From the NCBI GenBank assembly GCA_029851085.1, contig CP100318.1, forward strand, positions 150,001 through 182,000: a DNA stretch of 32,000 nt, given 5' to 3'. The DNA is from Candidatus Saccharimonadota bacterium. GTDB lineage: Bacteria > Bacteroidota > Bacteroidia > Flavobacteriales > Blattabacteriaceae. The notes under the pieces are model-generated. The model was given only the letters and a program-made list of their open reading frames with translations. It was not told the DNA's origin and made no database searches. Shown here one piece after another: positions 2,640 to 32,000 of this stretch (positions are counted from its first letter, which is position 1; each line of letters starts with the position of its first letter). A program made the translations under genes and the position numbers.

Positions 2640-5255
2640 TTAATTTATTCTTTTTAATTCTTCTTCAAGAAATAAAATTTTATTTGAAATATCAAATTCT
2701 TTTTTACGTTCTAAATCAATTATATTTTTAGGAGCATATAATAAAAATTGGGTATTAAATAATTTATTACGTAATAATGTCAAAAAATTTTTATAAAAAA
2801 TAATTTTTTGTTGTATTTTATTTTTATAATTTTTAATATTTAAATTATAATTTATTGTAATAAAAAATTCATCATTATCTATAATAAATGACAAAAAATT
2901 ATTTTTAGATGGTTTTTTTTGAATAAAGATTATATTATATATATATGCTAATTTTCTAATTATTGGATAATAATATTTATTATTATTTTTTTTTAAAATT
3001 AATAATGAAAATTTATTATATTTTAATATATTTTGCATTGAATGTAAACGTTCAATTATTTTTAATGTATTTTCAAATTTATTTAAAATTAAAATATTAT
3101 ATGATTTAATAATGGGAAATTTTGTAATAATCAATGCATCATTAATTGAACGTTTTTTTAATAACTGCCATATTTCTTCAGTTATAAAAGGCATATATGG
3201 ATGCAAAATTTTTAATAAATATTCAAAATATTTTATAGTATAAAAATATATATTAATAGATATACTATTATTAATAGGTTTAATAATTTCAATATATAAT
3301 GAACAAAAATCTTTCCATATTAATTTATATATTAACATTAAAGCATTATAAATTTTATATTCTTTTAAAAAGAAATCTATTCTTTTTAAAGAAAAATAAA
3401 ATTTATGTTTAAACCATTTAATAGCTATATTTGAATATATATCACACATTTTATATTCAATTTTCCATGATTTAATTAATCTAAAAACATTCCAAATTTT
3501 ATTAGCAAAATTTCTACCTTGAATGCAAATTGATTCATTAAAACATATATCATTTCCTGCATTATTATTTAATAATAATCCTACACGAATACTATCTGCT
3601 CCATATTTATTTATAAGTTTAATAGTATCAGGATAATTTCCCAATGATTTAGACATTTTTCTACCTAAATTATCTTTAATAAGACCTGTAAAATATACAG
3701 TATTAAATGGTTTTTGTTTTCTAAAAGTATATCCTGAAATAATCATTCTAGTTACCCAAAAAAACAAAATATCAGGTGCTGTTACTAAAACATTTATAGG
3801 ATAATAATATGAAATATCTTTATTATTAGGATTACGTATACCATCAAATACTGATATAGGCCATAACCAAGAAGAAAACCAAGTATCTAAAACATCTGAA
3901 TCCTGTTTAAGTTTATTTTTTATATTAGGATCATTGGTTATTCTACTAGCTTTAGATAAAGCTTCTTCAAAATTTTCGGCTACAACAAAATCATTTTTTC
4001 TTTTTCCATAATAATAAACTGGTATACGATGTCCCCACCAAAGTTGTCTAGATATATTCCAATCAGATAAATTTTCTATCCAATGAATATAATTTTTTTT
4101 ATATTTTTCAGGATAAAATTTTATTTCTCCATATTTAACTGCATCTAATGCTGGTTTAGCTAATTTTTTAATTTTAAAAAACCATTGTAATAAAAGTCTT
4201 GATTCAACAATAGCTTTAGTACGTTCTGATAAACGTATTGTATGTAAATAATTTTCTACTTTAAATAAAGAATTGATTTCTTTAAGTTCTTTAATAATTT
4301 CTTTACGAACTTCAAAACGATCTTTTTTATAAAAATGTAATCCATTTTTATTGAAAGTAGCATCTTCATTAAAAAGATCTATAATTTCTAAATTATGAGT
4401 ATCTGCCAATATTTTATCATTAATATCATGAGCAGGAGTAACTTTTAAACATCCAGTTCCAAATGATATATCTACATATTTATCTTCAATAATAGGAACA
4501 GAACGATTAACAATAGGAACTATAACTCTTTTACCTTTATATTTAGTATAACGAGAATCTTCAGGATTTATACAAATAGCAGTATCACCTAAAATAGTTT
4601 CAGGACGTGTAGTAGCTATTATAATAGAATCATTTTCTCCATCAATTTTATATTTAATATAATATAATTTATCATGTCGTTTTTCATAAATAATTTCTTC
4701 ATCTGAAATTGTAGTTTTAGCTTCTGGATCCCAATTAACCATACCATACTTTCTATAGATTAATCCTTTATTATATAATTCAATAAAAACTTTAATAACT
4801 GATTGATATAATTCTTTATCCATAGTAAATTTACTACGTTTCCAATCACAAGAACATCCTATTTTTTTTAATTGATCAAATATTATTTTAATATATTTAT
4901 TAGACCAATTCCATACACGATCTAAATACAATTTTCTTCCTAAAATTTCTTTAGATAAATTTTCTTTTTTTAATTCATAGATAATTTTTGCTTCAGTAGC
5001 AATAGATGCATGATCAGTACCAGGAATCCAACAAGTGTTATATCCTTTCATTCTAGCTAATCGTATTAAAACATCTTGTACTGTATTATTTAATATATGA
5101 CCAATATGAAGTATACCAGTAATATTAGGTGGTGGAATTACTAAAACATATGGTTTTCTATTATCAGGTTTTGAACTAAAATAATCTGCATTAATCCATT
5201 GTTTATAATGTTTAGATTCTATCAATTTGTGATTATATCTAATTGGTAATTCCAT
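2640..5255 (-). CDS. valS: Valine--tRNA ligase
   Basis: 871-aa ORF with class I aaRS motifs: PPPNITGILHIGH (HIGH) and GRKMSKSLGN (KMSKS). An editing-domain-sized insertion and a C-terminal coiled-coil tail are typical of ValRS. Confidence 0.96.
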   Translation of the reverse strand: MELPIRYNHKLIESKHYKQWINADYFSSKPDNRKPYVLVIPPPNITGILHIGHILNNTVQDVLIRLARMKGYNTCWIPGTDHASIATEAKIIYELKKENLSKEILGRKLYLDRVWNWSNKYIKIIFDQLKKIGCSCDWKRSKFTMDKELYQSVIKVFIELYNKGLIYRKYGMVNWDPEAKTTISDEEIIYEKRHDKLYYIKYKIDGENDSIIIATTRPETILGDTAICINPEDSRYTKYKGKRVIVPIVNRSVPIIEDKYVDISFGTGCLKVTPAHDINDKILADTHNLEIIDLFNEDATFNKNGLHFYKKDRFEVRKEIIKELKEINSLFKVENYLHTIRLSERTKAIVESRLLLQWFFKIKKLAKPALDAVKYGEIKFYPEKYKKNYIHWIENLSDWNISRQLWWGHRIPVYYYGKRKNDFVVAENFEEALSKASRITNDPNIKNKLKQDSDVLDTWFSSWLWPISVFDGIRNPNNKDISYYYPINVLVTAPDILFFWVTRMIISGYTFRKQKPFNTVYFTGLIKDNLGRKMSKSLGNYPDTIKLINKYGADSIRVGLLLNNNAGNDICFNESICIQGRNFANKIWNVFRLIKSWKIEYKMCDIYSNIAIKWFKHKFYFSLKRIDFFLKEYKIYNALMLIYKLIWKDFCSLYIEIIKPINNSISINIYFYTIKYFEYLLKILHPYMPFITEEIWQLLKKRSINDALIITKFPIIKSYNILILNKFENTLKIIERLHSMQNILKYNKFSLLILKKNNNKYYYPIIRKLAYIYNIIFIQKKPSKNNFLSFIIDNDEFFITINYNLNIKNYKNKIQQKIIFYKNFLTLLRNKLFNTQFLLYAPKNIIDLERKKEFDISNKILFLEEELKRIN

Positions 5256-5282
5256 ATTTATTAATAATTAACTTAAAATTAA

Positions 5283-5572
5283 GTAGGTCTATAAGCCGGA
5301 TTCTGTATTTATATAAAATATAAATCTTTATCATTTATCTAGGATAATAGTTACCTATTATCTCCAACTGCCTACCATCTGATAATATACGAGCAATATA
5401 ATCAGTATATTTGGCATTTCACCACGTAGAGTTTACCTGATTTCACTACAGCCTTACTGTACTTGCTTTCTGTTGCACTAGTCCTCACCTTTCGGTGTAC
5501 GGGAGTTACCCGTTACGTTGCTCTATGGTGTCCGGACTTTCCTCATCTTTTAGACGCGATAAAGTGACCTAC
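5283..5572 (-). ncRNA. rnpB: RNase P RNA (bacterial type A, reduced size about 290 nt)
   Basis: GC-rich island between valS and phoH. The reverse strand starts GTAGGTCACTTTATCGCGTCTAAAAGATGAGGAAAGTCCGGACACC (universal P4 5' strand GAGGAAAGTCCGG). It ends AATACAGAATCCGGCTTATAGACCTAC (P4 3' strand ACAGAAxCCGGCTTA). The termini GTAGGTC/GACCTAC pair as P1, and the flanks AATTAA/TTAATT (5573-5578 / 5277-5282) could extend P1 to 13 bp. Confidence 0.87.
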
Positions 5573-6505
5573 TTAATTATTAAAATAATATGCTTTAATA
5601 ATTTTATTAACTAAATAATGACGTAAAATATCATTTTCATTAAAAATGATAAATTTAATACCATTTATATTATTTAATATATTCATAACTTCTAATAATC
5701 CTGATTTATTATGATTAGGTAAATCAATTTGACCAGGATCTCCATTTATTATAAATTTAGCATTTTTTCCAATACGAGTTAAAAACATTTTCATTTGAAC
5801 ATTAGTAGTATTTTGTGCTTCATCTAATATTACAAAAGCATTATCCAATGTACGTCCTCTCATAAATGCTAAAGGTGCAATTTCAATAATTTTTTTATCA
5901 AAAAATTCTATTAATTTTTCATATTTAATCATTTTATTTAAAGCCTGATAAATAGGTTGTAAATAAGGATTAAATTTTTCTCTAAGATCTCCAGGAAGGA
6001 ACCCCAAATTTTCTCCGACTTCTATTGCAGGTCTTGTTAAGATAATACGTTTTATAATTTTTTTTTTAAAAGCTTGAACGGCTAAGGCAACACTAATATA
6101 TGTTTTACCTGTTCCTGATGGACCAATTGCAAAAACTATATCATTTGTTTTAATAGCTTCTACTAAAGTTAATTGATTTTTTGTTTTAGTAAAAATGGGT
6201 TTTCCATTAATACAAGTAATAATAGGTTTAGTTTTTATTTCAAAAACATCATTTTCAGATAAAATAATTTCTTCAATATTATATTTATTTAAATAACCAT
6301 TTTGATTAAAAAATTTAATTAAATTGTTAATTTTTTTTTTAAATAACAATAATATATTATTATTACCTATAGCTTTTAATTCATAATCTTTAGCAATAAT
6401 TTTTATTTTTGGAAAATAAGAATTTATAATTTCTAAATTATTATTATTTTCTCCATAAAAATCTTTAATAGAAAAACCAGATAAATTAATTGTTAATTCA
6501 TTCAA
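5573..6505 (-). CDS. phoH: PhoH-like ATPase (PhoH/YbeZ family)
   Basis: 310-aa ORF. Walker A GPSGTGKTY, Walker B/DEAQ-type ILDEAQN, and the conserved RGRTL and GDPGQIDLP motifs of PhoH. Confidence 0.9.
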   Translation of the reverse strand: MNELTINLSGFSIKDFYGENNNNLEIINSYFPKIKIIAKDYELKAIGNNNILLLFKKKINNLIKFFNQNGYLNKYNIEEIILSENDVFEIKTKPIITCINGKPIFTKTKNQLTLVEAIKTNDIVFAIGPSGTGKTYISVALAVQAFKKKIIKRIILTRPAIEVGENLGFLPGDLREKFNPYLQPIYQALNKMIKYEKLIEFFDKKIIEIAPLAFMRGRTLDNAFVILDEAQNTTNVQMKMFLTRIGKNAKFIINGDPGQIDLPNHNKSGLLEVMNILNNINGIKFIIFNENDILRHYLVNKIIKAYYFNN

Positions 6506-6538
6506 TGATATTTAATTTATTATATAATATTAATTAAT

Positions 6539-7551
6539 TTAAACAATTAAAACTTCCCTTTCAAGAAAAATTCCAAATTTTTTATTAACATCATAAATTA
6601 TTTTTTTCGATAAAGTATAAATTTCAATACCAGTAGCTTTACCATAATTAACTATTATGGAAGATTTATATATTCCTACATTACCTATTTTTTTTCCTTT
6701 CCAACCGGATTGTTCTATCAACCAACCAGAAGATAATTTTGTACAATTTTTTGAAAAATAATATCCAATCATATTAGGATTTTTTTCTTTTAAAAAATTA
6801 TAATAATTATTATTAATAATTGGATTTTTAAAGAAACTTCCACAATTTCCAAGTTTTTTAAAATTAGGAATTTTATTTTTACGTATATTTGTTATTGCTT
6901 GTGTAATATCATTAAGTGTAGGTTTAATAATTTTCATTTTTTCTAACTCTTCACCTACTTCTTTATATAAAAGATTGAATTTATGATTTTTTTTTTCAAT
7001 AAAAAATAAATATATAATATAACATATTTATTTTTTAATTTATTTTTAAAAATAGAATTTCTATAATTTAATTCACATGCTTTTTTATCAAAAAAAACTA
7101 TTTTTCCAGTTTTAATTTCATATGCGTATAATCCTATTAATATATCTTTAATTTCTACTCCATAAGCGCCTATATTTTGTATAGGTGCTGCTCCTACAGT
7201 ACCAGGAATTAAAGATAAATTTTCTAATCCACTAAATCCTTTGTTAATAGTCCAAATAACAAAATTTGTCCAAGATTCACTAGCAAAACTTGCTATAATA
7301 ACATAATATGAATATTCTTTAATAATAAATTTACCTTTTAAATTTAATTTAATTATTAATCCATTAAAATTATTTACAAATAAAGTATTACTTCCATTAC
7401 CTAAAATAAATTTAGGTAAATATTTAAATTTTTTATTATTAAAAATAAAATTTAAACTTTTTAAAGTATTTATTTTTATAAAATAATTAGTTTTTACATT
7501 TATTTTAAATGTATTAAAATGCTTTAAACAAACATTTTTTCTAAAATTCAT
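6539..7551 (-). pseudogene. murB: UDP-N-acetylenolpyruvoylglucosamine reductase MurB, split by a frameshift in an A10 tract (T10 on + strand, 6987-6996)
   Basis: ORF 6955-7551 is the FAD-binding N-half (LGNGSNTLF, GLENLSLIPGTVGAAPIQNIGAYG). ORF 6539-6937 is the C-half (LGNCGSFFKNP, SSGWLIEQSGWKG). The frame of the second ORF is open upstream to the homopolymer and reads ..KKNHKFNLLYKEVGEELEKMKIIKPTLNDITQAITNIRKNKIP, the expected MurB linker. One extra A (A11) gives a continuous ..YFLLKKKNHKFNLLYKE.. protein. Confidence 0.88.
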
Positions 7552-7552
7552 A

Positions 7553-8839
7553 ATGAATATTAAAAAATTATATAAACAATATATTATTAGTTCAGGAATA
7601 TCAATAGATACTAGAAAATCAATAAAAAATAAATTATTTTTCGCAATAAAAGGTAAAATTTATGATGGAAATTGTTTTGCTAATGAAGCTATTTTAAAAG
7701 TAGCTTTAGGAGTAGTTATTGATAATAAAAAATATTATTTACCTTTTAAAAATTTTTTTTTAGTAGAAAATTGTATTACTGCTTTACAAGAATTAGCTAT
7801 TTTTCATAGAAAAAAGTTTAATATTCCTTTTATAGCAATTACTGGAAGTAATGGTAAAACCACTACTAAAGAATTACTTTTTACGATATTATCTACTCAA
7901 TATAAAACATTTGCAACAAAAAATAATTTAAATAATCATATAGGTGTACCTATTACTATACTTTCTATTCCAAAAGATACTCAAATTGTTGTTATAGAAA
8001 TTGCTTCTAATTATACAGGAGAAAGAAAATTTTTATGTGAATTAGTTAAACCTAATTATGGATATATAACTAATTTTGGATATGCTCATCTTGAAGGTTT
8101 TTCTAATTTAGAAGGAGTTATTAATGAAAAATCAGAATTATATTCATATATCAAACGTTATGGAAAACTTGTTTTTATTAATGCTGATGATCCTTTACAG
8201 ATACAAAAAAGTTTAGGAATTGATACATATCAATTTTCTAAAACTAATAATTATAATTTATTTATAAAACCAATATATAAATCCAATTATTTTTGTTTTT
8301 TGTTTAAAAAAAAAATTATATATACAAATATATATGGTAAATATAATATTACTAATGTAGCAATAGCTATTGCTATAGCATATTATTTTAATATTTCTAT
8401 AAACAATATTATTAAATCTTTAGAAAAATTTAAAACAATAAATAATCGTTCTCAAATTTTGATAAAAAAACAATTTTATATCATACTAGATGCTTACAAT
8501 GCTAATCCTAGTAGTATGATAGAATCTATTAATAATTTAAATTATTTAAACAAAAATATTAAAAAATATGCTATACTAGGAGATATGTTTGAATTAGGAA
8601 TTCATATGCAATCTATGCATGAATATATAGTAAATATAGCTATTGAAAGTAATATAGATTATATTTATTTAATAGGACATTTGTTTAATAAAATTACTAT
8701 TGATAATAGTAAAATTAAAATTTTTAATAAAAAAAAAGATATAATTATTTATTTGAATAATAATTTAAAAAAAGGAATTCTTTTAATAAAAGGATCTAGA
8801 AAAATGAATTTAGAATATATAGTTGATTATTTAAAATAA
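7553..8839 (+). CDS. murF: UDP-N-acetylmuramoyl-tripeptide--D-alanyl-D-alanine ligase
   Basis: 428-aa ORF. Mur ligase P-loop [12 protein letters not shown], the [10 protein letters not shown] motif and the GDMFELG C-terminal domain motif typical of MurF. Its ATG (7553) is 1 nt from the divergent murB ATG (7551). Confidence 0.9.
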
Positions 8840-10552
8840 ATAATATCTTTGTGTTAAAGGTAATTTATCGGATGGATTAGATAATATTTTTTCATTATTT
8901 ATAGATACTATATGAGATTTAGGATCTATTTCTATTATTGGTATTTCATTATTTAATATAAGATCTTTTTTAGAAATATTTCTACAATTTTTAACTGATT
9001 TAATTTGTTTTTTTACATTTAAATTAAAAATATTACCATTTTCTATAGAAATTTTTGATACAAAAATAGCATTTAATTCAGGATTATTATATCCAAACAT
9101 AGTACGATACATAAATGGTTGGGTAGTAGAAATTGCAGCATTAGGATCTCCTATAATTGCATATGTAATCATACCACTTTTTAATACCAACTCAGGTTTA
9201 GTTCCAAAAAATGATGGTTTCCATATAACTAAATCAGCAATTTTTCCTACTTCAATTGATCCTACATAATCAGATATACCATGTGTAATGGCAGGATTTA
9301 TTGTATATTTTGCTATATAACGTTTTACTCTAAAATTATCATCATCAGATATATTATCATCATTATTATTTTTTTTTAATATTCCATATTCTTTTTTCAT
9401 TTTATCTGCTGTTTGCCATGTACGTCTTATAACTTCTCCAATTCTTCCCATAGCTTGAGCATCTGAATTAATAATACTAATAGCACCTAAATCATGTAAC
9501 ACACCCTCAGCTCTTATAGTATTATTTCTAATACGTGATTTTGCAAAAGCAATATCTTCATCAATTTTATTATCTAAATGATGACACATCATTAGCATAT
9601 CAAAATGTTCTTCTATAGTATTTATAGTATAAGGTAGAGTAGGAGTAGTTGATGATGGTAAAACATTATTATTGGAAATTATTTTAAGTATATCTGGAGA
9701 ATGTCCACCTCCTGCTCCTTCTACATGATATGCATGAATAGTTCTATTATTAATAGATTTTATGGTATCTTCTATATATCCAGATTCATTTAATGTATCT
9801 GTATGAATATTAATTTGTATATCAAATTCTTCAGCTATATTTAAACATTTATCAATAACATTAGGAGTACTTCCCCAATCTTCATGAATTTTTAATGCAC
9901 CGGCTCCTGCTTCTATCTGTTCTATCAAAGATTTTCTTCCTAAACTATTTCCACAACCCATAAACACAAAATTAATTGGTATATTATCTGTAGCTTTTAT
10001 CATTGATTGAATATTCCATATTCCTGAAGTACAATTAGTTGCTAAAGTTCCAGTAGTAGGACCTGATCCACCACCTATAATAGTAGTAGTTCCATTTTCA
10101 AGTGCAATATTAAAAATTTCAGGACATATATAATGTACATGACTATCTACACATCCAGCAGTCACTATTTGATTTTCAGCCGATATAATTTCTGTTCCTA
10201 CTCCAATAAACATACCTGGTGTCACTCCTTCCATTACCATAGGATTTCCAGCTTTACCAATTCCAGTTATTAAACCATCTTTAATACTAATATCAGCTTT
10301 AATAATTCCCCAAGTATCTATAATTATAGCATTTGTTATTACTAAATCAGCTACTCCTTCATTTCGACTAGCCACAGGATGTTGTCCCATTCCACAACGA
10401 ATAACTTTTCCACTACCAAACATACATTCTTCTCCATATGTAGTATAATCTTTTTCAATTTTTATCCATAAAGAAGTATCACCTAAACGTATTTTATCTC
10501 CTACTGTAGGACCATACATACTGGCGTATATTTGTCGATTAATTTTTTTCAT
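8831..10552 (-). CDS. ureC: Urease subunit alpha
   Basis: 573-aa [28 protein letters not shown]-terminus. Nickel-site motifs [22 protein letters not shown] and MMCHHLD, plus the flap region. The convergent 9-nt overlap with murF is at 8831-8839. Confidence 0.97.
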
Positions 10553-11147
10553 TATTTATTGTATTGTTTTTATATATTTCTATTAATGTAACTTCTTTAG
10601 TTTCACCAGGTTCTAAACGTATAGATTTACCAGAAGGTATATATAAACGATAATTATTTGTTCCTTCACGATTAAATTTAATTGCTGAATTAACTTCATA
10701 AAAATTAAAATGTGATCCTATTTGAATAGGTCGTGTTCCAGTATTTGTAATTTTTCTAAAAATTTTTTGTCTATTTGATAAATAGATTATTTCATTTTTA
10801 GAATGTAAATATTCTCCAGGTATAATATCATAATATTTTATAGATTGTATAGGATTACGTATAGTAACTAATTTTGTTCCATCAGGAAATGTTGCTTCTA
10901 CTTGTACTTTATCAATCATTTCTGGAACACCATCCATTACTTTATCATAAGTTAAAATTTGTTTAGATTCTTTAATAATATTTTCAATAGTTTTTTTTCC
11001 CTCTCGTGCACATTCCAAAACATAACATGTAATTAATGCTATAGATTCTGGATAATTTAGTTTAATTCCTCTATTTAAACGTTTTTTAGCTAATTCTCCT
11101 GCTAAAAAAATAAAAAGTTTTTCTTTTTCACAAAAAGTTAAATGCAT
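10539..11147 (-). CDS. ureAB: Urease gamma/beta fusion subunit
   Basis: 202-aa ORF. Residues 1-100 ([56 protein letters not shown]) are UreA-like. The remainder ([46 protein letters not shown]) is UreB-like. It overlaps the ureC start by 14 nt. Confidence 0.93.
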
Positions 11148-11169
11148 AAATTTAATTCATAAATTTTTT

Positions 11170-11192
11170 TTTACGTATAATCTATACGTAAA
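11170..11192. promoter_or_regulatory. Perfect 10-bp inverted repeat TTTACGTATA-atc-TATACGTAAA upstream of ureAB (candidate operator or 5'-UTR hairpin)
   Basis: Read directly: 11170-11179 is the reverse complement of 11183-11192. It lies 23-45 nt upstream of the ureAB ATG (11147, - strand). The function is inferred only. Confidence 0.3.
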
Positions 11193-11305
11193 TATTTTTA
11201 TAAACAATTTAAATATAAATATTTTTTTTATTCTATACGTAAATTTTATATTATTATTTTTTTTATATAAATATTTTTTTTATTTTTAGATATCTATACG
11301 TTAAT
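11181..11305. repeat. Three direct TCTATACGTWAAT boxes (11181, 11232, 11293) in the urease-proximal part of the spacer
   Basis: TCTATACGTAAAT at 11181-11193 and 11232-11244; TCTATACGTTAAT at 11293-11305. Boxes 2 and 3 share 18 of 19 nt (TCTATACGTWAATTTTATA). The spacings are 51 and 61 bp. Confidence 0.6.
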
Positions 11306-11360
11306 TTTATAAACGTTTATTAACGCGGGGTTAACGTTTCGCGGGGTAATTAATAATATA

Positions 11361-11821
11361 TAGCGAACGCGGGGTAATAAATATTATTTTAATAATTATA
11401 TATAATAATTATAATTATATATATTAATTATATATATTAATTATATATAATAATTATAATTATATATATATTAATAATATATAGCGAACGCGGGGTAATA
11501 AATATATAATAATTATATATAATTATTATAATTAATAATATATAGCGAACGCGGGGTAATAAATATTTAATAATTATATATATATATTATATATTAATAA
11601 TATATAGCGAACGCGGGGTAATAAATATTTAATAATTATATATATATATTATATATTAATAATATATAGCGAACGCGGGGTAATAAATATTTAATAATTA
11701 TATATATATATTATATATTAATAATATATAGCGAACGCGGGGTAATAAATATTTAATAATTATATATAATAATTATAATTATATATATTAATTATATATA
11801 ATAATTATAATTAATAATATA
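11361..11821. repeat. Tandem array, G-type subfamily: 6 units ending ..TATATAGCGAACGCGGGGT (unit lengths 121, 61, 62, 62, 62, 93 bp)
   Basis: GCGAACGCGGGG starts at 11363, 11484, 11545, 11607, 11669 and 11731. The three 62-bp units (11545-11730) are identical. The longer units carry extra A/T-only inserts built from TAATTATATATA-like sub-repeats. Confidence 0.9.
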
Positions 11822-12470
11822 TAGCGAACGCGTGGTAATAAATATAATTTATTTTAATAAATATTATAATTAATAATATATAGCGAACGCGTGGTAATAA
11901 ATATAATTTATTTTAATAAATATTATATATATTAATATATAGCGAACGCGTGGTAATAAATATAATTTATTTTAATAAATATTATATATATTAATATATA
12001 GCGAACGCGTGGTAATAAATATAATTTATTTTAATAAATATTATATATATTAATATATAGCGAACGCGTGGTAATAAATATAATTTATTTTAATAAATAT
12101 TATATATATTAATATATAGCGAACGCGTGGTAATAAATATAATTTATTTTAATAAATATTATATATATTAATATATAGCGAACGCGTGGTAATAAATATA
12201 ATTTATTTTAATAAATATTATATATATTAATATATAGCGAACGCGTGGTAATAAATATAATTTATTTTAATAAATATTATATATATTAATATATAGCGAA
12301 CGCGTGGTAATAAATATAATTTATTTTAATAAATATTATATATATTAATATATAGCGAACGCGTGGTAATAAATATAATTTATTTTAATAAATATTATAT
12401 ATATTAATATATAGCGAACGCGTGGTAATAAATATAATTTATTTTAATAAATATTATATATATTAATATA
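11822..12470. repeat. Tandem array, T-type subfamily: 11 units of 59 bp (TAGCGAACGCGTGGTAATAAATATAATTTATTTTAATAAATATTATATATATTAATATA)
   Basis: TAGCGAACGCGTGG starts at 11822 and then every 59 bp up to 12412. The printed 60-nt lines shift by exactly one base per line. Ten units are 100% identical; the first differs only in its A/T tail. The next period (12471) is the genuine tRNA-fMet 5' region. Confidence 0.95.
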
Positions 12471-12477
12471 TAGCGAA

Positions 12478-12549
12478 CGCGGGGTGGAGCAGTGGTAGCT
12501 CATCGGGCTCATAACCCGAAGGTCACAGGTTCGAATCCTGTCCCCGCTA
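12478..12549 (+). tRNA. Initiator tRNA-fMet (CAU)
   Basis: CGCGGGG-TG-GAGC-AGTGGTA-GCTC-A-TCGGG-CTCATAA-CCCGA-AGGTC-ACAGG-TTCGAAT-CCTGT-CCCCGCT-A. It has the initiator hallmarks: a C1 x U72 mismatch at the top of the acceptor stem, and three consecutive G:C pairs (GGG/CCC) closing the anticodon stem. It is nearly collinear with E. coli tRNA-fMet. No CCA is encoded. Confidence 0.93.
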
Positions 12550-12571
12550 CTAATTTAAGTTATTAGTTATT

Positions 12572-12901
12572 ATGATTAATGTATCTGATTCAGCTAAAAA
12601 TCAATTAATTAATATAATGAAAAAAGAAGGGTTATCTACTAATAAATATTTTGTTCGTTTATCAATTACAAATAAAGGATGTTCAGATTTTTCTTATGAT
12701 TTATCATTTGATGAAATAAAAAAAAAAGATGATAATTTATTTGAAAATAATGGAATTAAATTTATTGTTGAAAAAAAATATATATCATATTTAGATAATT
12801 TAATATTAGAATATAATGGTGGATTAAATGGAAAAGGATTTATTTTTAAAAATCCTAATGCTCAACATACTTGTGGATGTGGTAAAAGTTTTTCTATATA
12901 A
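12572..12901 (+). CDS. sufA: Iron-sulfur cluster insertion/A-type carrier protein (IscA/SufA/ErpA family)
   Basis: 109-aa ORF with conserved Cys at ..NKGCSDF.. and the C-terminal CGCGKSF motif. It sits directly upstream of sufBCDS. Confidence 0.87.
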   Translation: MINVSDSAKNQLINIMKKEGLSTNKYFVRLSITNKGCSDFSYDLSFDEIKKKDDNLFENNGIKFIVEKKYISYLDNLILEYNGGLNGKGFIFKNPNAQHTCGCGKSFSI

Positions 12902-12927
12902 CAAAAAAAGTTTTTCTATATAACAAA
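12884..12927. repeat. Perfect 22-bp tandem duplication (AAAAGTTTTTCTATATAACAAA x2) covering the sufA stop codon
   Basis: 12884-12905 is identical to 12906-12927. The first copy encodes the last sufA codons (..K S F S I stop). The second copy fills most of the sufA-sufB spacer. Confidence 0.85.
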
Positions 12928-12929
12928 AT

Positions 12930-14364
12930 ATGAATGAAGATAAAAGTAATAATTTAATTAAAAAAATTACTGATTCTGAATATAAATATGGTTTTTATAC
13001 TAATATTGAATCATATAAATTTCCAAAAGGACTTAATAAAAAAATTATTTCAGATATATCTAAAAAAAATAATGAACCAAATTGGATATTAAATTGGCGA
13101 TTAGAATCATATGATATATGGAAAAAAATGCATTGTCCTAAATGGGCTAATATAAAATATATTGAACCAGATTTTCAAGATATAATTTATTACTCATCTC
13201 CCAAAAAAAAAAAAAAATAATATAGATCCTATATTACTTGATACATTTAACAAATTAGGAATTTCATTAGAAGAACAAAAACATCTTTCAGGTGTTGCTA
13301 TAGATGCTGTAATGGATTCAGTTTCAATAACTACTACATTTAAAAAAAGGTTATCTGAAATGGGTATTATTTTTTGTCCTATTAGTGAAGCTATACAAAA
13401 ATATTCTAATTTAATTAAAAAATATTTAGGAACAGTAGTTCCACAAAATGATAATTTTTATGCAGCATTAAATTCTGCAGTTTTTTCAGATGGATCTTTT
13501 TGTTATATACCTAAAGGTATACGTTGTCCTATTGAACTTTCTACTTATTTCCGTATTAATGAAAGTGGAACTGGTCAATTTGAACGAACTTTAATTATTG
13601 CAGATAAAAATTCTTATGTAAGTTATTTAGAAGGGTGTACCGCCCCTCGTAGAGATGAAAATCAATTACATGCAGCTGTAGTTGAATTAATTGCTTTAGA
13701 AAATTCTGAAATAAAATATTCTACAGTTCAAAATTGGTTCCCAGGCAATAAAGATGGTAAAGGAGGTGTATTTAATTTTGTAACAAAACGTGGTTTATGT
13801 GAAAAAAATGCTAAAATATCTTGGACACAAGTAGAAACAGGATCATCTATAACTTGGAAATATCCTTCATGTATATTAAAAGGAGATTATTCAGTAGGAG
13901 AATTTTATTCAGTAGCACTAACTAAAAATTTTCAACAAGCAGACACTGGTACAAAAATGATTCATATTGGTAATAATAGCAAAAGTACTATTATTTCTAA
14001 AGGAATATCTTCTGATAAAGCTCAAAATAGTTATAGAGGATTAGTAAAAATATCGGCTAATGCAAATAATGCACGAAATTTTTCTCAATGTGATTCATTA
14101 CTTCTTAGTAATGAATGTGGTGCTCATACTTTTCCATATATTGACGTTAATAATTCTTCAGCACTAGTAGAACATGAAGCAACTACTTCTAAAATTGAAA
14201 AAGATCAAATATTTTATTGTAATCAAAGAGGTATTAATTTAGAAAAAGCTATATCACTTATAGTAAATGGTTTTAGTAATGAAGTTTTAAATAAACTTCC
14301 TATGGAATTTGCTATAGAAGCAAGAAAATTATTAGAAATTTCTTTAGAAAATTCTGTAGGTTAA
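12930..14364 (+). pseudogene. sufB: Fe-S cluster assembly scaffold SufB, interrupted by a frameshift in an A15 tract (13203-13217)
   Basis: ORF 12930-13220 is the SufB N-terminus and ends ..[10 protein letters not shown]-stop. The +1 frame is open from 13186 and reads ..[48 protein letters not shown].. into ORF 13312-14364, the SufB core ([32 protein letters not shown]). Loss of one A (A14) yields a continuous ..[15 protein letters not shown].. protein. Confidence 0.9.
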
Positions 14365-17669: not shown

Positions 17670-20072
17670 TTATTCATAATTTTCTATTATGTCTCCAACT
17701 TGAATATTATTACAATTTTTAATACTTATACCACATTCATAACCTTTGTTAACTTCTTTAATATCTTCTTTAAATCTTTTTAAAGAAGTAATTTCACCAT
17801 CAGATAATATAACAATACCTTTTCTAATAAGTCTTATTTTAGAAGAATAAATTATTTTACCTTTAGTAATTATACATCCAGCAATAATACCTATTTTAGG
17901 TATTTTAAATATTTCTTGTACTTGTGCATTACCAATAATTATTTCTTTTTTATCATTAGATAATAATAATCCATCTATAACTTTTTTAATATCATTTATT
18001 ATATTATAAATAATTGAATATGTACGGATTTCAATATTTTCTTTTTCTGCAAGATTAATAATATTATTATTAGCTGTACGAACATTGAACCCTATAATTA
18101 TAGCATTTGATGCACTAGCTAATAAAACATCAGATTCAGTAATTGCTCCTACATTTTTATAAATAATATTAATCATAATTTTATCTGTAGATTCTTTTTG
18201 CAAAGAATGTACTATAGCTTCTATAGAACCATCTTTATCTCCTTTTATTATAATTTTAATTTCTTTAAAATTACCACCTAAAGAAATTCTTCTACCAATT
18301 TCATCTAATGTTAGATATTTTTGAGTACGAATATTTTGTTCACGTTGTAATTGCATTCGTTTATAAGCAATTTGTTTAGCTTTTTTCTCATCTTTAAATA
18401 CTTTAAATTTTTCTCCTGCTACAGGTGCTCCATTTAAACCTAAAATTATTGCTGGTTTAGAAGGACAAACTTCTTTGATAGATTTACCACGTTCGTCTAA
18501 AATAACTTTTATTTTTCCGTGATAATTACCTGCTAATACATAATCACCTTGTTTAAGGGTACCATTTTGTATAATAACATTAGTTAAAAAACCTCTACCT
18601 TTATCTAAACTTGCTTCTATAATAGTTCCTGTTGCTAATTTATTAGGATTAGCTTTAAGTTCTAAAATTTCAGATTCCATTATTATTTTTTCTAATAATT
18701 TATTTATACCTACACCTGTTTTTGCAGATATTTCTTGAGATTGATATTTACCTCCCCATTCTTCTACTAAAAGATTTATTGCTGCTAATTGTTCACGTAT
18801 TTTTTCAGGATTTGACAGAGGTTTATCAATTTTATTGATAGCAAATATCATTGATACACCAGATATTTTAGCATGACTAATTGCTTCTTTTGTTTGAGGC
18901 ATAATTTTATCATCTGATGCAATAACAATAACAGCAATATCAGTAATTTGAGCACCTCTTGCACGCATAGCAGTAAATGCTTCATGTCCAGGTGTATCAA
19001 TAAAAGTTATGCTTTTTCCATTAATATCAACACTATATGCTCCTATATGTTGAGTAATTCCTCCAACTTCTCCCACAATTAGATTAGAATTTCTAATATA
19101 ATCAATTAATGAAGTTTTACCATGATCTACATGTCCCATTATTGTTACTATAGGTGAACGATTTTTAAGATTTGTTTCAAAATCTTTTTCATCTTGAATT
19201 GCATATTCTAAACCTACAAATTCTACTAAATATCCAAATTCATCAGCAACTAATGTAATTGTATCAGCATTCAAACGTTGATTCATTGTTACCATAAGAC
19301 CTAATGACATACATGTTTGTATAATTTTAGTTTCAGAAACATTTATCATAGCAGATAATTCATTAACTGTTGCAAATTCTGTTATTTTAAGTAATTTTTT
19401 ATTGGTTGTTGGTGTTGGTTGATTAGTTTTAGTGTATTTATTATTTTTTTTATTAATTTTTTTATTTTTTAAAGTTTTGTTAACATTTTTAAATTTATAA
19501 AGATTATTATTTCCTAATGTTTTGTGAGATTTATTTTTTTTAAATTTATCAAGATTATTATTTCCTAATGATTTATCAAATTTATTTTTTTTAAATTTAT
19601 CAAGATTATTATTTCCTAATGATTTATCAAATTTATTTTTTTTAAATTTATCAAGATTATTATTTCCTAATGATTTATCAAATTTATTTTTTTTAAATTT
19701 ATCAAGATTATTATTTCCTAATGATTTATCAAATTTATTTTTTTTAAATTTATCAAGATTATTATTTCCTAATGATTTATCAAATTTATTTTTTTTAAAT
19801 TTATCAAGATTAATATTTCCTAATGTTTTGATATTTATACGTTTATAATGTATTATATCAGGTTTTTCTTTATTTTCCTGTTTTTTATTTTTGTTATTAT
19901 GATTATTTTGCATATTATTATCATATTTAAATTCTTTTATTAAAAGTTTATAAATATTTTTTTCTAATTTTAAATTAGGATTATATTCAATTTGAATGCC
20001 TTGAGTTTGTAAAAAATCAACAACTCTTTTAAGAGAAATATTAAATTTGGTTAAAATTGTTTTAAATCTCAT
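17670..20072 (-). CDS. infB: Translation initiation factor IF-2
   Basis: 800-aa ORF. G-domain motifs GHVDHGKTS, DTPGHEAF, NKIDK. IF-2 N-terminal domain (MRFKTILTKFNISLKRVVDFLQTQG). Its stop codon abuts the convergent sufS stop with a 0-nt spacer. Confidence 0.96.
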   Translation of the reverse strand: MRFKTILTKFNISLKRVVDFLQTQGIQIEYNPNLKLEKNIYKLLIKEFKYDNNMQNNHNNKNKKQENKEKPDIIHYKRINIKTLGNINLDKFKKNKFDKSLGNNNLDKFKKNKFDKSLGNNNLDKFKKNKFDKSLGNNNLDKFKKNKFDKSLGNNNLDKFKKNKFDKSLGNNNLDKFKKNKSHKTLGNNNLYKFKNVNKTLKNKKINKKNNKYTKTNQPTPTTNKKLLKITEFATVNELSAMINVSETKIIQTCMSLGLMVTMNQRLNADTITLVADEFGYLVEFVGLEYAIQDEKDFETNLKNRSPIVTIMGHVDHGKTSLIDYIRNSNLIVGEVGGITQHIGAYSVDINGKSITFIDTPGHEAFTAMRARGAQITDIAVIVIASDDKIMPQTKEAISHAKISGVSMIFAINKIDKPLSNPEKIREQLAAINLLVEEWGGKYQSQEISAKTGVGINKLLEKIIMESEILELKANPNKLATGTIIEASLDKGRGFLTNVIIQNGTLKQGDYVLAGNYHGKIKVILDERGKSIKEVCPSKPAIILGLNGAPVAGEKFKVFKDEKKAKQIAYKRMQLQREQNIRTQKYLTLDEIGRRISLGGNFKEIKIIIKGDKDGSIEAIVHSLQKESTDKIMINIIYKNVGAITESDVLLASASNAIIIGFNVRTANNNIINLAEKENIEIRTYSIIYNIINDIKKVIDGLLLSNDKKEIIIGNAQVQEIFKIPKIGIIAGCIITKGKIIYSSKIRLIRKGIVILSDGEITSLKRFKEDIKEVNKGYECGISIKNCNNIQVGDIIENYE
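19462..19826. repeat. In-frame 51-bp (17-aa) tandem repeat inside infB, about 7 units
   Basis: CCTAATG recurs at 19513, 19564, 19615, 19666, 19717, 19768 and 19819 (period 51). The protein reads TLGNINLDKFKKNKFDK, then (SLGNNNLDKFKKNKFDK) x4, then SLGNNNLDKFKKNKSHK, then a degenerate TLGNNNLYKFKNVNK. The central units are identical at nucleotide level. Confidence 0.9.
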
Positions 20073-29859: not shown

Positions 29860-32000
29860 TTATTTATTTAAATTTCTAATTTTTACTTGATAAGTAACAT
29901 TAGGTCGTGTACCTAAAAAATCTAATAATTTATATGTTCTATTATTTTTTAATTGTTGTTTTATTTCACTTTTATCATCATTAATATCTCCAAAATATAT
30001 TGCACCAGTAGGACATGCTTTAGAACATGCTGTATTAAATTCTCCATCTTTAATTATTCTATTTTCTTTTTTTGCTTTTAATATTGTTTCTTGTGTCATT
30101 TGTATACACATTGAACATTTTTCCATTACTCCTCTTGTACGTATTACTACATCTGGATTTAAAACCATCTTACCTAAATCATTATTCATATGAAAATCAA
30201 ATTTTTTATTTTCTACATAATTAAACCAATTAAAACGTCTAACTTTATATGGACAATTATTTGCACAGTACCGAGTACCTACACATCTATTATATGTCAT
30301 CATATTTTGACCTTGTTTTCCATGTGATGTAGCTGCTACTGGACAAACAGTTTCACATGGAGCATTATTACAATGTTGACACATAATTGGTTGAAAACGA
30401 ATTTTAGGATTATTTTCAGGTTTTAGTAAATAATTATAAATTTTAGGTTCAGAAATATTTTTTTTATGCAAAGTTTTAAAACTTTCTTTAGTAGAATAAT
30501 ATCTATCAATACGTAACCAATACATATCACGAGAATTTCTAATTTCATTTTTACCAACTACAGGAACGTTATTTTCAACATTACAAGCTATTACACAAGT
30601 TCCACACCCAATACATGCATTTAAATCAATAGAAATATTAAAATGATGACCTGTATTATTATCATTTTCTTTCCATAAAGAAATTTTTTCTAAAGGTAAT
30701 TCACCTTTTGAAGAAGTAATTTTTTCTTCTTTATTCCATTTTTCTTTTGTAAAATTTAAAAAAGTATTTAAATCAGTTTCTTTAGCTATTATATCATCTC
30801 TACCTACCATAGTATTTTGCAATTGTATACTAGCAAATTCATGAATTCCTTCAGTTTTTTTTATTATTACGTTATAATGTATTAAATTAAAATTTTTGTA
30901 AATTAAATATGCATTAATTCCACTACTATGTGTTGCAACTTTACCTTTGGTATGTCCATATCCTAAAGAGAGACCAACTGATCCTTCTGCTTGTCCAGGT
31001 TGAATAAATATTGGAATATTTATTATTTTTAATCCATTAACAATAATATCAACATAGTTACTATTAATTGCTCCAGTAGCAGTATTCCAGTTTTTTATAC
31101 CTAATTTTTGTGCATCTTTTAATGATATTGTTAAATAATTATCCCAAGATATACGTGTAATAGGATCTGGTAATTCTTGTAACCAAGGATTATTAGCTTG
31201 TGTACCATCTCCTATACTAGTTTTAGTATATAATCTTAATTCAAAATTGTCTATATTATTGTCTATATTATTAATAATAGAATTTAAATAATTTTTATTA
31301 TAATAACATTTATTGGTATGAATTTCATTGGTATGAATAAAACCATTAAAAAGAGCTATATTAAATGATTTTATATTTGATTTAGATAAAATATTTTTTT
31401 CCCAAAAATTTCTTAAATAATCATAATAATTGTTTATATAATTATTATTATAATATTTATATCCTACTGATATATCAGCTGGATTATTGGTATTATTAGC
31501 TGGATTATTGGTATTATTAGCTGGATTATTGGTATTATTAGCTGGATTATTAATAGAATGAATTTTATTTTTCCATATAATCAAAGAATTTTGAAATTGT
31601 CTAGTATTAAATAAAGATTGTATAGTAGGTTGTATAAGTGTATATATTCCTGTCATAGGATGGGTATCTCCCCAACTTTCTAACCAATGAGGTATAGGTG
31701 CAAAAACTTTTATTAATTTAGATGTTTCATCTTCCTTCATAGCAAAAGAAATACTTAAATCAAGTTTTTTTAAATAATTTTCTAATTTTAGAATACTAGG
31801 AAAACTGTATACAGGATTTACATTATAAAGTAATAAAGCTCCAACATTTCCTATTTTAAGGTCATTAATAAATTGATTAAAAATAATATTATTACTTTCT
31901 TTAGAAAAAAGAAATTTTTTATATGATAAAGCTTTGCTTTTAATTTTTAAATTAATAATTAATGATAAAGCATAAATTTCTTTACTACCATCAGCTAATA
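29860..32000 (-). CDS. actB: Alternative complex III subunit ActB (molybdopterin-oxidoreductase-like domain fused to a 4Fe-4S ferredoxin domain); 5' end beyond the window
   Basis: The track starts at M 31740, but the same frame is stop-free up to nt 32000 (..LADGSKEIYALSLIINLKIKSKALS..GALLLYNVNPVYSFPSILKLENYLKKLDLSISFAMKEDE..). The C-terminal half carries Fe-S motifs CIGCGTCVIACNVEN, CQHCNNAPCETVCP, CVGTRYCANNCPYKVRRFNW and CSMCIQ. Confidence 0.9.
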   Translation of the reverse strand, partial: LADGSKEIYALSLIINLKIKSKALSYKKFLFSKESNNIIFNQFINDLKIGNVGALLLYNVNPVYSFPSILKLENYLKKLDLSISFAMKEDETSKLIKVFAPIPHWLESWGDTHPMTGIYTLIQPTIQSLFNTRQFQNSLIIWKNKIHSINNPANNTNNPANNTNNPANNTNNPADISVGYKYYNNNYINNYYDYLRNFWEKNILSKSNIKSFNIALFNGFIHTNEIHTNKCYYNKNYLNSIINNIDNNIDNFELRLYTKTSIGDGTQANNPWLQELPDPITRISWDNYLTISLKDAQKLGIKNWNTATGAINSNYVDIIVNGLKIINIPIFIQPGQAEGSVGLSLGYGHTKGKVATHSSGINAYLIYKNFNLIHYNVIIKKTEGIHEFASIQLQNTMVGRDDIIAKETDLNTFLNFTKEKWNKEEKITSSKGELPLEKISLWKENDNNTGHHFNISIDLNACIGCGTCVIACNVENNVPVVGKNEIRNSRDMYWLRIDRYYSTKESFKTLHKKNISEPKIYNYLLKPENNPKIRFQPIMCQHCNNAPCETVCPVAATSHGKQGQNMMTYNRCVGTRYCANNCPYKVRRFNWFNYVENKKFDFHMNNDLGKMVLNPDVVIRTRGVMEKCSMCIQMTQETILKAKKENRIIKDGEFNTACSKACPTGAIYFGDINDDKSEIKQQLKNNRTYKLLDFLGTRPNVTYQVKIRNLNK
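31478..31551. repeat. In-frame 21-bp (7-aa) tandem repeat inside actB, about 3.5 units
   Basis: GCTGGATTATTGGTATTATTA at 31478, 31499 and 31520, plus a partial unit at 31541. It encodes NNPANNT x3 followed by NNPA. Confidence 0.88.

Follow-up and report, generated by a model that had tools for sequence, protein, structure and literature searches.

A tandem array reiterating the 5' end of the initiator tRNA gene in 'Candidatus Bostrichicola ureolyticus' LBRU, probably a young and lineage-specific minisatellite

The DNA analysed here (the window, 32,000 nt of record CP100318) comes from 'Candidatus Bostrichicola ureolyticus', as its UreAB, UreC and SufA proteins show, and more precisely from strain LBRU, which belongs to the Flavobacteriia and lives as a symbiont in the beetle Lyctus brunneus; the contig measures 337,436 bp, and the window proteins correspond to WGH28015-28017. 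The element in question is a tandem array, located between a urease gene and the initiator tRNA gene, in which the leader of this tRNA, its first eight nucleotides and the DNA upstream are reiterated in 17 short units, and which is real and striking but most probably non-adaptive. On the left, the spacer that holds the array is bordered by ureAB (10539-11147, minus strand; WGH28016.1), an open reading frame (ORF) for a fused urease gamma/beta protein, which is transcribed away from the array, shares 96% identity with the Bostrichicola urease P0001 and carries the Pfam domains Urease_gamma and Urease_beta. On the right stands the only complete copy of tRNA-fMet (12478-12550, plus strand), called as tRNA-Met(CAT) by ARAGORN and Rfam (tRNA, 68.4 bits) with a cloverleaf fold, and bearing the marks of an initiator in its sequence, namely an anticodon stem with three G-C pairs and a mismatch at 1:72, where C1 stands opposite U72. 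It is followed, 21 nt further on, by a sufA-like iron-sulfur (Fe-S) assembly gene (12572-12901, plus strand; PF01521), the first of a sufABCDS cluster that is probably co-transcribed with the tRNA, since no terminator was predicted.

The ureAB-to-tRNA spacer measures 1330 nt in LBRU; the size of 1.3 kb given to the array by an earlier description made from the letters of this DNA (hereafter the sequence-only reading) therefore holds for the spacer, whereas the array proper occupies 1.14 kb. The core GCGAACGCGKGG occurs 18 times, always on the plus strand, against 0.00 expected (100 shuffles). It forms a G+C island of 12-13 nt in pure A/T and equals the tRNA leader plus tRNA nt 1-8; outside the cores, not a single G or C is found over about 900 nt of array, and the A/T segment of the unit is rich in TA palindromes. 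Six cores are of a GGGG type (starting at 11363, 11484, 11545, 11607, 11669 and 11731), eleven are of a GTGG type (starting from 11824 to 12414, in steps of 59), a variant that creates the palindrome ACGCGT, and the 18th, at 12473, belongs to the real tRNA-fMet gene, so that the core-to-core distances are 121, 61, 62, 62, 62 and 93 nt and then eleven times 59 nt. Tandem Repeats Finder (TRF) delimits the repeat at 11349-12485, with a period of 59 and 18.4 copies, the proximal stretch (11834-12485) being 99% identical.

In the register AATAAATAT...GCGAACGCGKGGT, the array is composed of a distal, older block and a proximal, young one, both on the plus strand. The distal block (11348-11836) consists of a 28-nt unit followed by units of 121, 61, 62, 62, 62 and 93 nt; it contains the six GCGAACGCGGGGT cores and terminates in the first GTGG core, its units 3-5 (62 nt) are mutually identical, and A/T sub-duplications of 32/45 nt are nested inside the 121- and 93-nt units. 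The proximal block (11837-12426) consists of ten 59-nt units ending in CGCGTGGT, of which nine (units 8-16) are identical and one (unit 7) differs internally. Unit 17 (12427-12485, plus strand) is made of the gene's own upstream 51 nt and tRNA nt 1-8, and its sole difference from units 8-16 is G5 instead of T. The array holds no ORF of at least 20 aa, and a coding array was accordingly rejected. The sequence-only reading was thus borne out in every countable detail as to unit copies, spacings, G/T types and the assignment of the 18th core to the gene, as well as in the purely A/T and non-coding nature of the units and in the two degenerate seeds that it had placed at 11324 and 11340.

These seeds are two truncated copies of CGCGGGGT (11324-11331 and 11340-11347), read from the sequence within a plus-strand segment (11324-11347) that begins as CGCGGGGT-TAACGTTT, and they would be the oldest captures of tRNA nt 1-8. 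The TAACGTTT of the LBRU seed is homologous to a single-copy TTAACGTTT in the spacer of the related strain LAFR, and has a decayed counterpart, ACGCTTGGTAAT, in strain LCAV. Between the seeds and ureAB lies the part of the spacer outside the array (11148-11323), whose first ~100 nt align with LAFR, and in which TRF detects a 52-nt tandem duplication (TCTATACGTAAAT..., 2.0 copies, 81% identity, 11181-11284) that is private to LBRU and present as a single copy in LAFR. Short palindromes of the AAAC/GTTT type were also noticed in the spacers: AAACGTTT / TAACGTTT twice in LBRU (window 11313-11339) and in LAFR, and TTGTTTTAAACA several times in strains DPOR (L082 5330-5620) and DMIN (L091 4180-4250). 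Such palindromes might represent an operator or promoter element conserved between the divergent genes, or have arisen by chance in A/T-rich DNA.

The spacer was compared among five Bostrichicola strains, whose assignment to hosts and records follows the supplementary tables of PMC10284843: LBRU (window, CP100318; 55x hybrid assembly by MaSuRCA/Geneious of Illumina reads SRR19201365 and Nanopore reads SRR19201357), LCAV from L. cavicollis (L086, CP100320; Illumina only), LAFR from L. africanus (L081, draft of 171 contigs; Illumina only), DPOR from Dinoderus porcellus (L082, CP100319; complete) and DMIN from D. minutus (L091, CP100321; complete). The GenBank records of LBRU, LCAV, DPOR and DMIN are each exactly 100 bp above the size tabulated in that study. 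The array appears undescribed there, as the words 'tandem' and 'intergenic' are absent from its main text.

The gene order ureC-ureAB (minus strand), tRNA-fMet and sufABCDS (plus strand) is kept in all five strains, the flanking genes share 99.0-99.6% identity with the window in LCAV, 97.0-99.2% in LAFR and 83-93% in DPOR, and tRNA-fMet is 100% identical in the three Lyctus strains (LBRU, LCAV, LAFR). The spacer varies far more, from 1330 nt in LBRU to 554 nt in LCAV (including 93 N), 189 nt in LAFR, 848 nt in DPOR and 208 nt in DMIN, and this instability is specific to the locus: five other gene junctions compared as a control measure 2-47 nt or keep a constant overlap in all five strains. 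The LBRU array is replaced in LCAV by a microsatellite of the 8-bp motif GGTAATTA, together with a small number of decayed units; the LCAV spacer contains AGGTAATT repeated 13.6 times, a gap, 10.0 further copies and 60-nt units of GGTAAT plus A/T (2.6 copies), with 26 copies of GGTAAT, the relic ACGCTTGGTAAT and the GCGAACGCGKGG core only once. The gap corresponds to 93 consecutive N that interrupt the (GGTAATTA)n array midway, in a genome given as 'complete' (CP100320; L086 5496-5782). No repeat was found in the LAFR and DMIN spacers, DPOR has an almost pure A/T spacer with its own 132-nt duplication, and the GCGAACGCGKGG core is absent from all three of these strains. Units were compared across strains by their G/C landmarks, MAFFT being uninformative in DNA of about 95% A/T. 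Blattabacterium is uninformative for this spacer, as it shows no ureAB/tRNA-fMet/sufA synteny, and a scan of metagenomes for the array unit gave no match. Conservation of the units in related endosymbiont genomes, which the sequence-only reading had put forward for checking, was therefore not found: as judged from these sequences, the array is not conserved even among strains that are 97-99.6% identical in the flanking genes, and it turns over rapidly.

The array is likely to be a young, lineage-specific and hypervariable minisatellite with no function of its own, that is, the neutral slipped-strand variable number tandem repeat (VNTR) which the sequence-only reading had kept as a fallback and which the comparative evidence favours. 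As expected of such repeats, the units stand head to tail far beyond chance and their composition differs between close relatives; the graded structure, with diverged distal units holding nested sub-duplications and a homogeneous proximal block, is likewise minisatellite-like. The junction GGGGT followed by AAT (tRNA nt 4-8 plus the start of the next unit) and the GCGAA leader are found in LBRU and LCAV and are absent from LAFR, DMIN and DPOR, which indicates that the tRNA 5' end was first captured in an ancestor shared by LBRU and LCAV, once their lineage had separated from LAFR; the LCAV leader, ...TTAGCGAA followed by CGCGGGG (GCGAA next to CGCGGGG), is the same as in the window. These shared features indicate a common origin of the two arrays, followed by divergent turnover. 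In LAFR, TTCGCTATAT lies 24 nt 5' of the tRNA (L081 3321-3345) in the quasi-palindrome CTATAT-tt-ATATAG, and it is the reverse complement of the LBRU/LCAV leader ATATAGCGAA (window 12463-12477); GCGAA or its complement occurs by chance in 2% of shuffles of the LAFR spacer (0.02, for the 5-mer alone). This suggests that template switching in the ancestor of LBRU and LCAV inverted about 24 bp, either at the time of the duplication or just before it. Over 590 nt, the ten 59-nt units are free of substitutions, while LBRU and LCAV genes differ by 0.4-1%, so the last amplification is younger than the split of these two strains. The G-to-T change is present in all eleven proximal copies and not in the gene itself, a pattern expected if one mutated upstream copy was amplified and selection removed replacements of G5 in the tRNA. 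Other slippage products private to LBRU include the 52-nt duplication, a 22-nt duplication at sufA/sufB, an A15 run in sufB and a 51-bp array in infB.

From these observations, the following course of events can be proposed. A small inversion or template switch would have occurred in the LBRU+LCAV ancestor at a quasi-palindrome just 5' of the initiator tRNA gene, and would have been followed by a tandem duplication with its right breakpoint after tRNA nt 8, creating the junction of CGCGGGGT with AAT. The A/T segment, anchored by a 13-nt G+C core, would then have undergone expansion, contraction and overwriting through replication slippage or unequal exchange. This may have left the six older GGGG-type units in LBRU, where one copy would have gained the G-to-T change before being amplified recently into eleven 59-nt units that are nearly identical; what expanded in LCAV would have been the junction motif itself, giving the (GGTAATTA)n microsatellite. 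Selection would hold G5 in the last copy, the sole one that continues into a complete tRNA. If the promoter of the tRNA and suf genes lies within the upstream 51 nt, the array would incidentally contain 11 to 17 copies of it, and RNase P would trim the transcripts that start upstream and continue into the tRNA.

Several points weigh against this explanation. Neutrality is deduced from non-conservation and not from measurement, and the copy number comes from one hybrid Nanopore/Illumina assembly at 55x. For a genome of 337 kb whose spacers measure 2-47 nt, and in which deletion bias would normally be strong, an array of 1.1 kb is also a heavy load. Lastly, the same spacer has undergone independent expansions in at least two clades, namely LBRU/LCAV and DPOR, and its neighbours have not, which points to something specific to the locus, beyond what slippage alone explains; this might be the stalling of replication forks at a heavily transcribed tRNA gene, the presence of divergent promoters or a replication landmark.

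It is highly unlikely that the array, or most of its copies, was produced by the hybrid assembler from noisy long reads. Such an error would be in keeping with the reliance on that single MaSuRCA/Geneious assembly, with the frameshifting A15 run in the same window, which breaks a short-read contig and is possibly a long-read homopolymer error, and with the unresolved N run of LCAV at this locus. However, Logan contig L088, derived from the Illumina reads SRR19201365 of LBRU, is an exact substring of the window (2831-11378) and ends 1 nt past the first non-unique 31-mer of the window, which itself ends at 11377; this is the behaviour of a k=31 graph at a true repeat, and it requires at least two different contexts for that 31-mer in the raw reads. 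No short-read contig entering the array from the right was found, the next one (L089) starting at the sufB A-run (13201) and ending at about 19558, inside the infB tandem array. The short-read contigs of LCAV and DPOR likewise break within their own spacers, and the several unit types, the nested structure and the consistent G/T partition are unlike collapse or expansion artefacts. The existence and the left boundary of the array are thus backed by raw short reads, and the only feature at real risk is the number of identical 59-nt units, which is taken from the hybrid assembly alone. A functional promoter array, in which each unit would carry the tRNA-fMet/suf promoter and start and 11-17 tandem promoters would bring more RNA polymerase to the suf operon and to the sole initiator tRNA gene, is unlikely. 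Units 8-16 match exactly the 51 nt that precede the real tRNA and, as ureAB is divergent and DNA outside the array begins only more than 1.1 kb further 5', the tRNA promoter (and probably that of suf too) is most likely inside the unit and hence reiterated; with no terminator predicted in the array region, read-through to the tRNA is possible. The sequence-only reading went further and took each unit for a complete -10 element plus GC-rich discriminator, a consensus that is not that of the phylum: in Bacteroidota, promoters follow -33 TTTG / -7 TAnnTTTG. Searched with the sigma-70 pattern, which is not the Bacteroidota consensus and thus not that expected of a Flavobacteriia symbiont, the region 11100-12600 is depleted, with 5 sites against 22.5 +/- 4.7 in shuffles, and the eleven 59-nt units contain none (two hexamers, 16-18-nt spacing). 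There is no exact TAnnTTTG in the spacer and none within one mismatch in the unit, which has no G outside the core, so that no TTTG is possible there. Over the whole window this motif is at chance frequency (29 and 30 matches against about 32 expected), which makes consensus searching weak in this genome. LCAV moreover manages with one copy, and LAFR and DMIN with different, unrepeated upstream DNA, the tRNA being identical in LCAV and LAFR, and tandem promoters can occlude each other. A promoter array that arose as a side effect of the minisatellite is logically possible, and nothing indicates selection for such copies.

Among readings that invoke replication, we give little credence to a landmark in which the A/T-only spacer would be the origin or terminus of the chromosome, comparable to the A+T-rich control region of insect mitochondria, and the repeats a consequence of, or a substrate for, initiation or fork arrest. 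It is in line with the fact that this is the sole unstable spacer in the five-strain comparison, that its interior is 100% A/T, that it lies between divergent genes, and that it stands roughly opposite coordinate 1 of the records (48.7% in DPOR, 47.9% in LCAV, 48.2% in DMIN). A regression of skew on gene orientation and spacer side, covering 32 kb only, also gave a weak, non-significant side effect of origin-type sign at third codon positions (GC3, 0.072 +/- 0.043), but over all sites the side term is 0.011 +/- 0.013 and skew tracks gene orientation. The DnaA box TTATCCACA (at most one mismatch) does not occur in the spacer and is not enriched in the window (8 against 11.6 expected), no repeated element is conserved between strains, and the LAFR and DMIN spacers measure only 189-208 nt; furthermore, the choice of coordinate 1 is not stated, and skew or origin is not mentioned, in PMC10284843. 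The origin and iteron alternatives of the sequence-only reading gained no support, as no DnaA box was found in the spacer and no orientation-corrected skew switch in the 32 kb covered, and the array is unconserved among close strains. The expansion of a single spacer in at least two clades, together with its position at about 48%, nevertheless keeps the landmark alive. A related proposal, which is quite doubtful, would make the spacer a control region like that of an organelle, with an origin or terminus composed of A/T only that may double as a divergent promoter hub for urease and tRNA/suf. It is just as doubtful that new arrays keep arising because forks are repeatedly started there, or arrested against the heavily transcribed tRNA gene, although this would explain why LBRU/LCAV and DPOR expanded independently while neighbouring spacers stay at 2-47 nt. 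An iteron-like array of binding sites for a protein recognising GCGAACGCGKGG is extremely improbable: the regular spacing of 18 G+C islands of 12-13 nt in pure A/T, with the palindromic GTGG variant, recalls such arrays, but the core sequence is explained by descent from the tRNA leader and nt 1-8, it is missing from LAFR, DMIN and DPOR and occurs once in LCAV, no rep-like or regulator gene is adjacent (the flanks being ureAB and sufA), and the genome encodes only about 324 proteins (PMC10284843). Three other candidates were rejected: a structured RNA, as fold z-scores are +1.17, +0.20 and +0.89 against shuffles and Rfam matches only the tRNA; a CRISPR locus, as the inter-core segments are themselves identical (units 8-17 and 3-5) and no cas genes lie in the flanks; and an att-site duplication by an integrase, as no integrase gene lies in the flanks and the 5' 8 nt are copied 17 times. 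Integrases normally duplicate tRNA 3' ends, and once.

If the minisatellite explanation holds, slippage remodels a spacer fast in a supposedly static endosymbiont genome, with three spacer architectures among strains whose genes are 1-3% different, and the locus could be used as it stands to type strains of Lyctus symbionts. Symbiont genomes described as 'closed' may, in addition, contain errors or gaps at this very spacer, a caution that the N run of LCAV illustrates. Should the units instead be active promoters, they would constitute a rare natural bacterial promoter array and, if so, give a direct handle on promoters in a genome of about 20% G+C that lacks a recognisable consensus.

Other irregularities were noticed in the window. 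The sufB gene is split (ORFs 12930-13220 and 13312-14364) by an A15 run at 13203-13217, exactly where L089 starts; the corresponding run is A11 in LCAV and A12 in LAFR, where the gene is intact at 476 aa, and the additional 4 nt shift the frame. The frameshift may be genuine, in which case slippage during transcription might rescue the gene; alternatively, sufB may be a young pseudogene, or the run a homopolymer error of the long reads. Just upstream, a perfect 22-nt tandem duplication (AAAAGTTTTTCTATATAACAAA, two copies, 12884-12928) repeats the final 18 nt of sufA together with 4 nt more and brings the sufA/sufB spacer to 28 nt, against 6 nt in LCAV and LAFR; it is a second LBRU tandem duplication that captures a gene end. 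The infB gene for IF-2 (minus-strand ORF 17673-20072) harbours in its N-terminal part an in-frame array of 51 bp (17 aa) at 19486-19829, with 6.7 copies and 97% identity, IF-2 being 757 aa long in LCAV and 708 aa in DPOR. A 21-bp tandem repeat of in-frame length (TATTAGCTGGATTATTGGTAT, 31473-31551, 3.8 copies, 98% identity) lies inside the minus-strand ORF 29863-31998. Finally, murB (6542-7551) is split into two ORFs (198 and 132 aa in the Logan gene calls), compared with 339 aa in DPOR and DMIN, and both murF and murB are lost in LCAV, which fits the erosion of peptidoglycan genes reported for Lyctus symbionts (PMC10284843).

Parallels to the LBRU array exist in several known systems. Two of them, outside bacteria, offer a function-like analogy only. 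The spacer promoters of eukaryotic ribosomal DNA (rDNA), such as the 240-bp repeats of Drosophila and those of Xenopus, likewise lie upstream of a stable-RNA gene and reiterate a segment that spans the promoter-proximal region and the first nucleotides of the transcript; they are made by unequal exchange and vary in copy number. Their copies have proved active in experiments, as promoters or enhancers of RNA polymerase I, and are conserved at the locus, whereas the LBRU array matches no promoter consensus and is not conserved in its sister strains. VNTRs of animal mitochondrial control regions are A/T-rich and length-variable, may include part of an adjacent tRNA gene and are attributed to slipped-strand mispairing. 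LBRU similarly has a non-coding, hypervariable A/T array beside a tRNA gene in a highly reduced genome; the mitochondrial arrays lie in a proven replication control region, whereas an origin function is unsupported here.

Among bacteria, the tyrT/tyrV locus of Escherichia coli (rttR/tpr region) also has a tandem array that is bounded inside a tRNA gene and in which each unit reiterates a terminal piece of the tRNA. Direct inspection gave a 178-bp unit in 3.1 copies at 95% identity, each copy starting with ATCCTTCCCCCACCACCA, the last ~18 nt (3' end) of tRNA-Tyr; a literature search for the tyrT repeats returned no relevant paper. In E. coli, however, the 3' end is captured, downstream of the gene, in three long, G+C-normal and transcribed units (small RNA RttR, protein Tpr), while in LBRU the 5' end and upstream DNA are captured in 17 short units that are pure A/T outside the core and contain no ORF. 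This is not the first example of repeats inflating spacers in an insect symbiont, since in the Portiera of Bemisia tabaci they did so in one lineage, together with the loss of dnaQ, mutL and other genes (Sloan & Moran 2013, PMC3673631). Portiera resembles LBRU in its tiny, A/T-rich, obligate endosymbiont genome and in having lineage-specific tandem repeats in spacers that vary between close strains, and it resembles Bostrichicola in that sister lineages stay compact; it differs in that its repeats are mostly 7-bp microsatellites spread over many spacers, whereas Bostrichicola has a single spacer with a 59-121-nt minisatellite that includes the 5' end of a gene. Portiera is thus the closest biological context for the LBRU array, and E. 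coli tyrT/tyrV its closest bacterial structural analogue.

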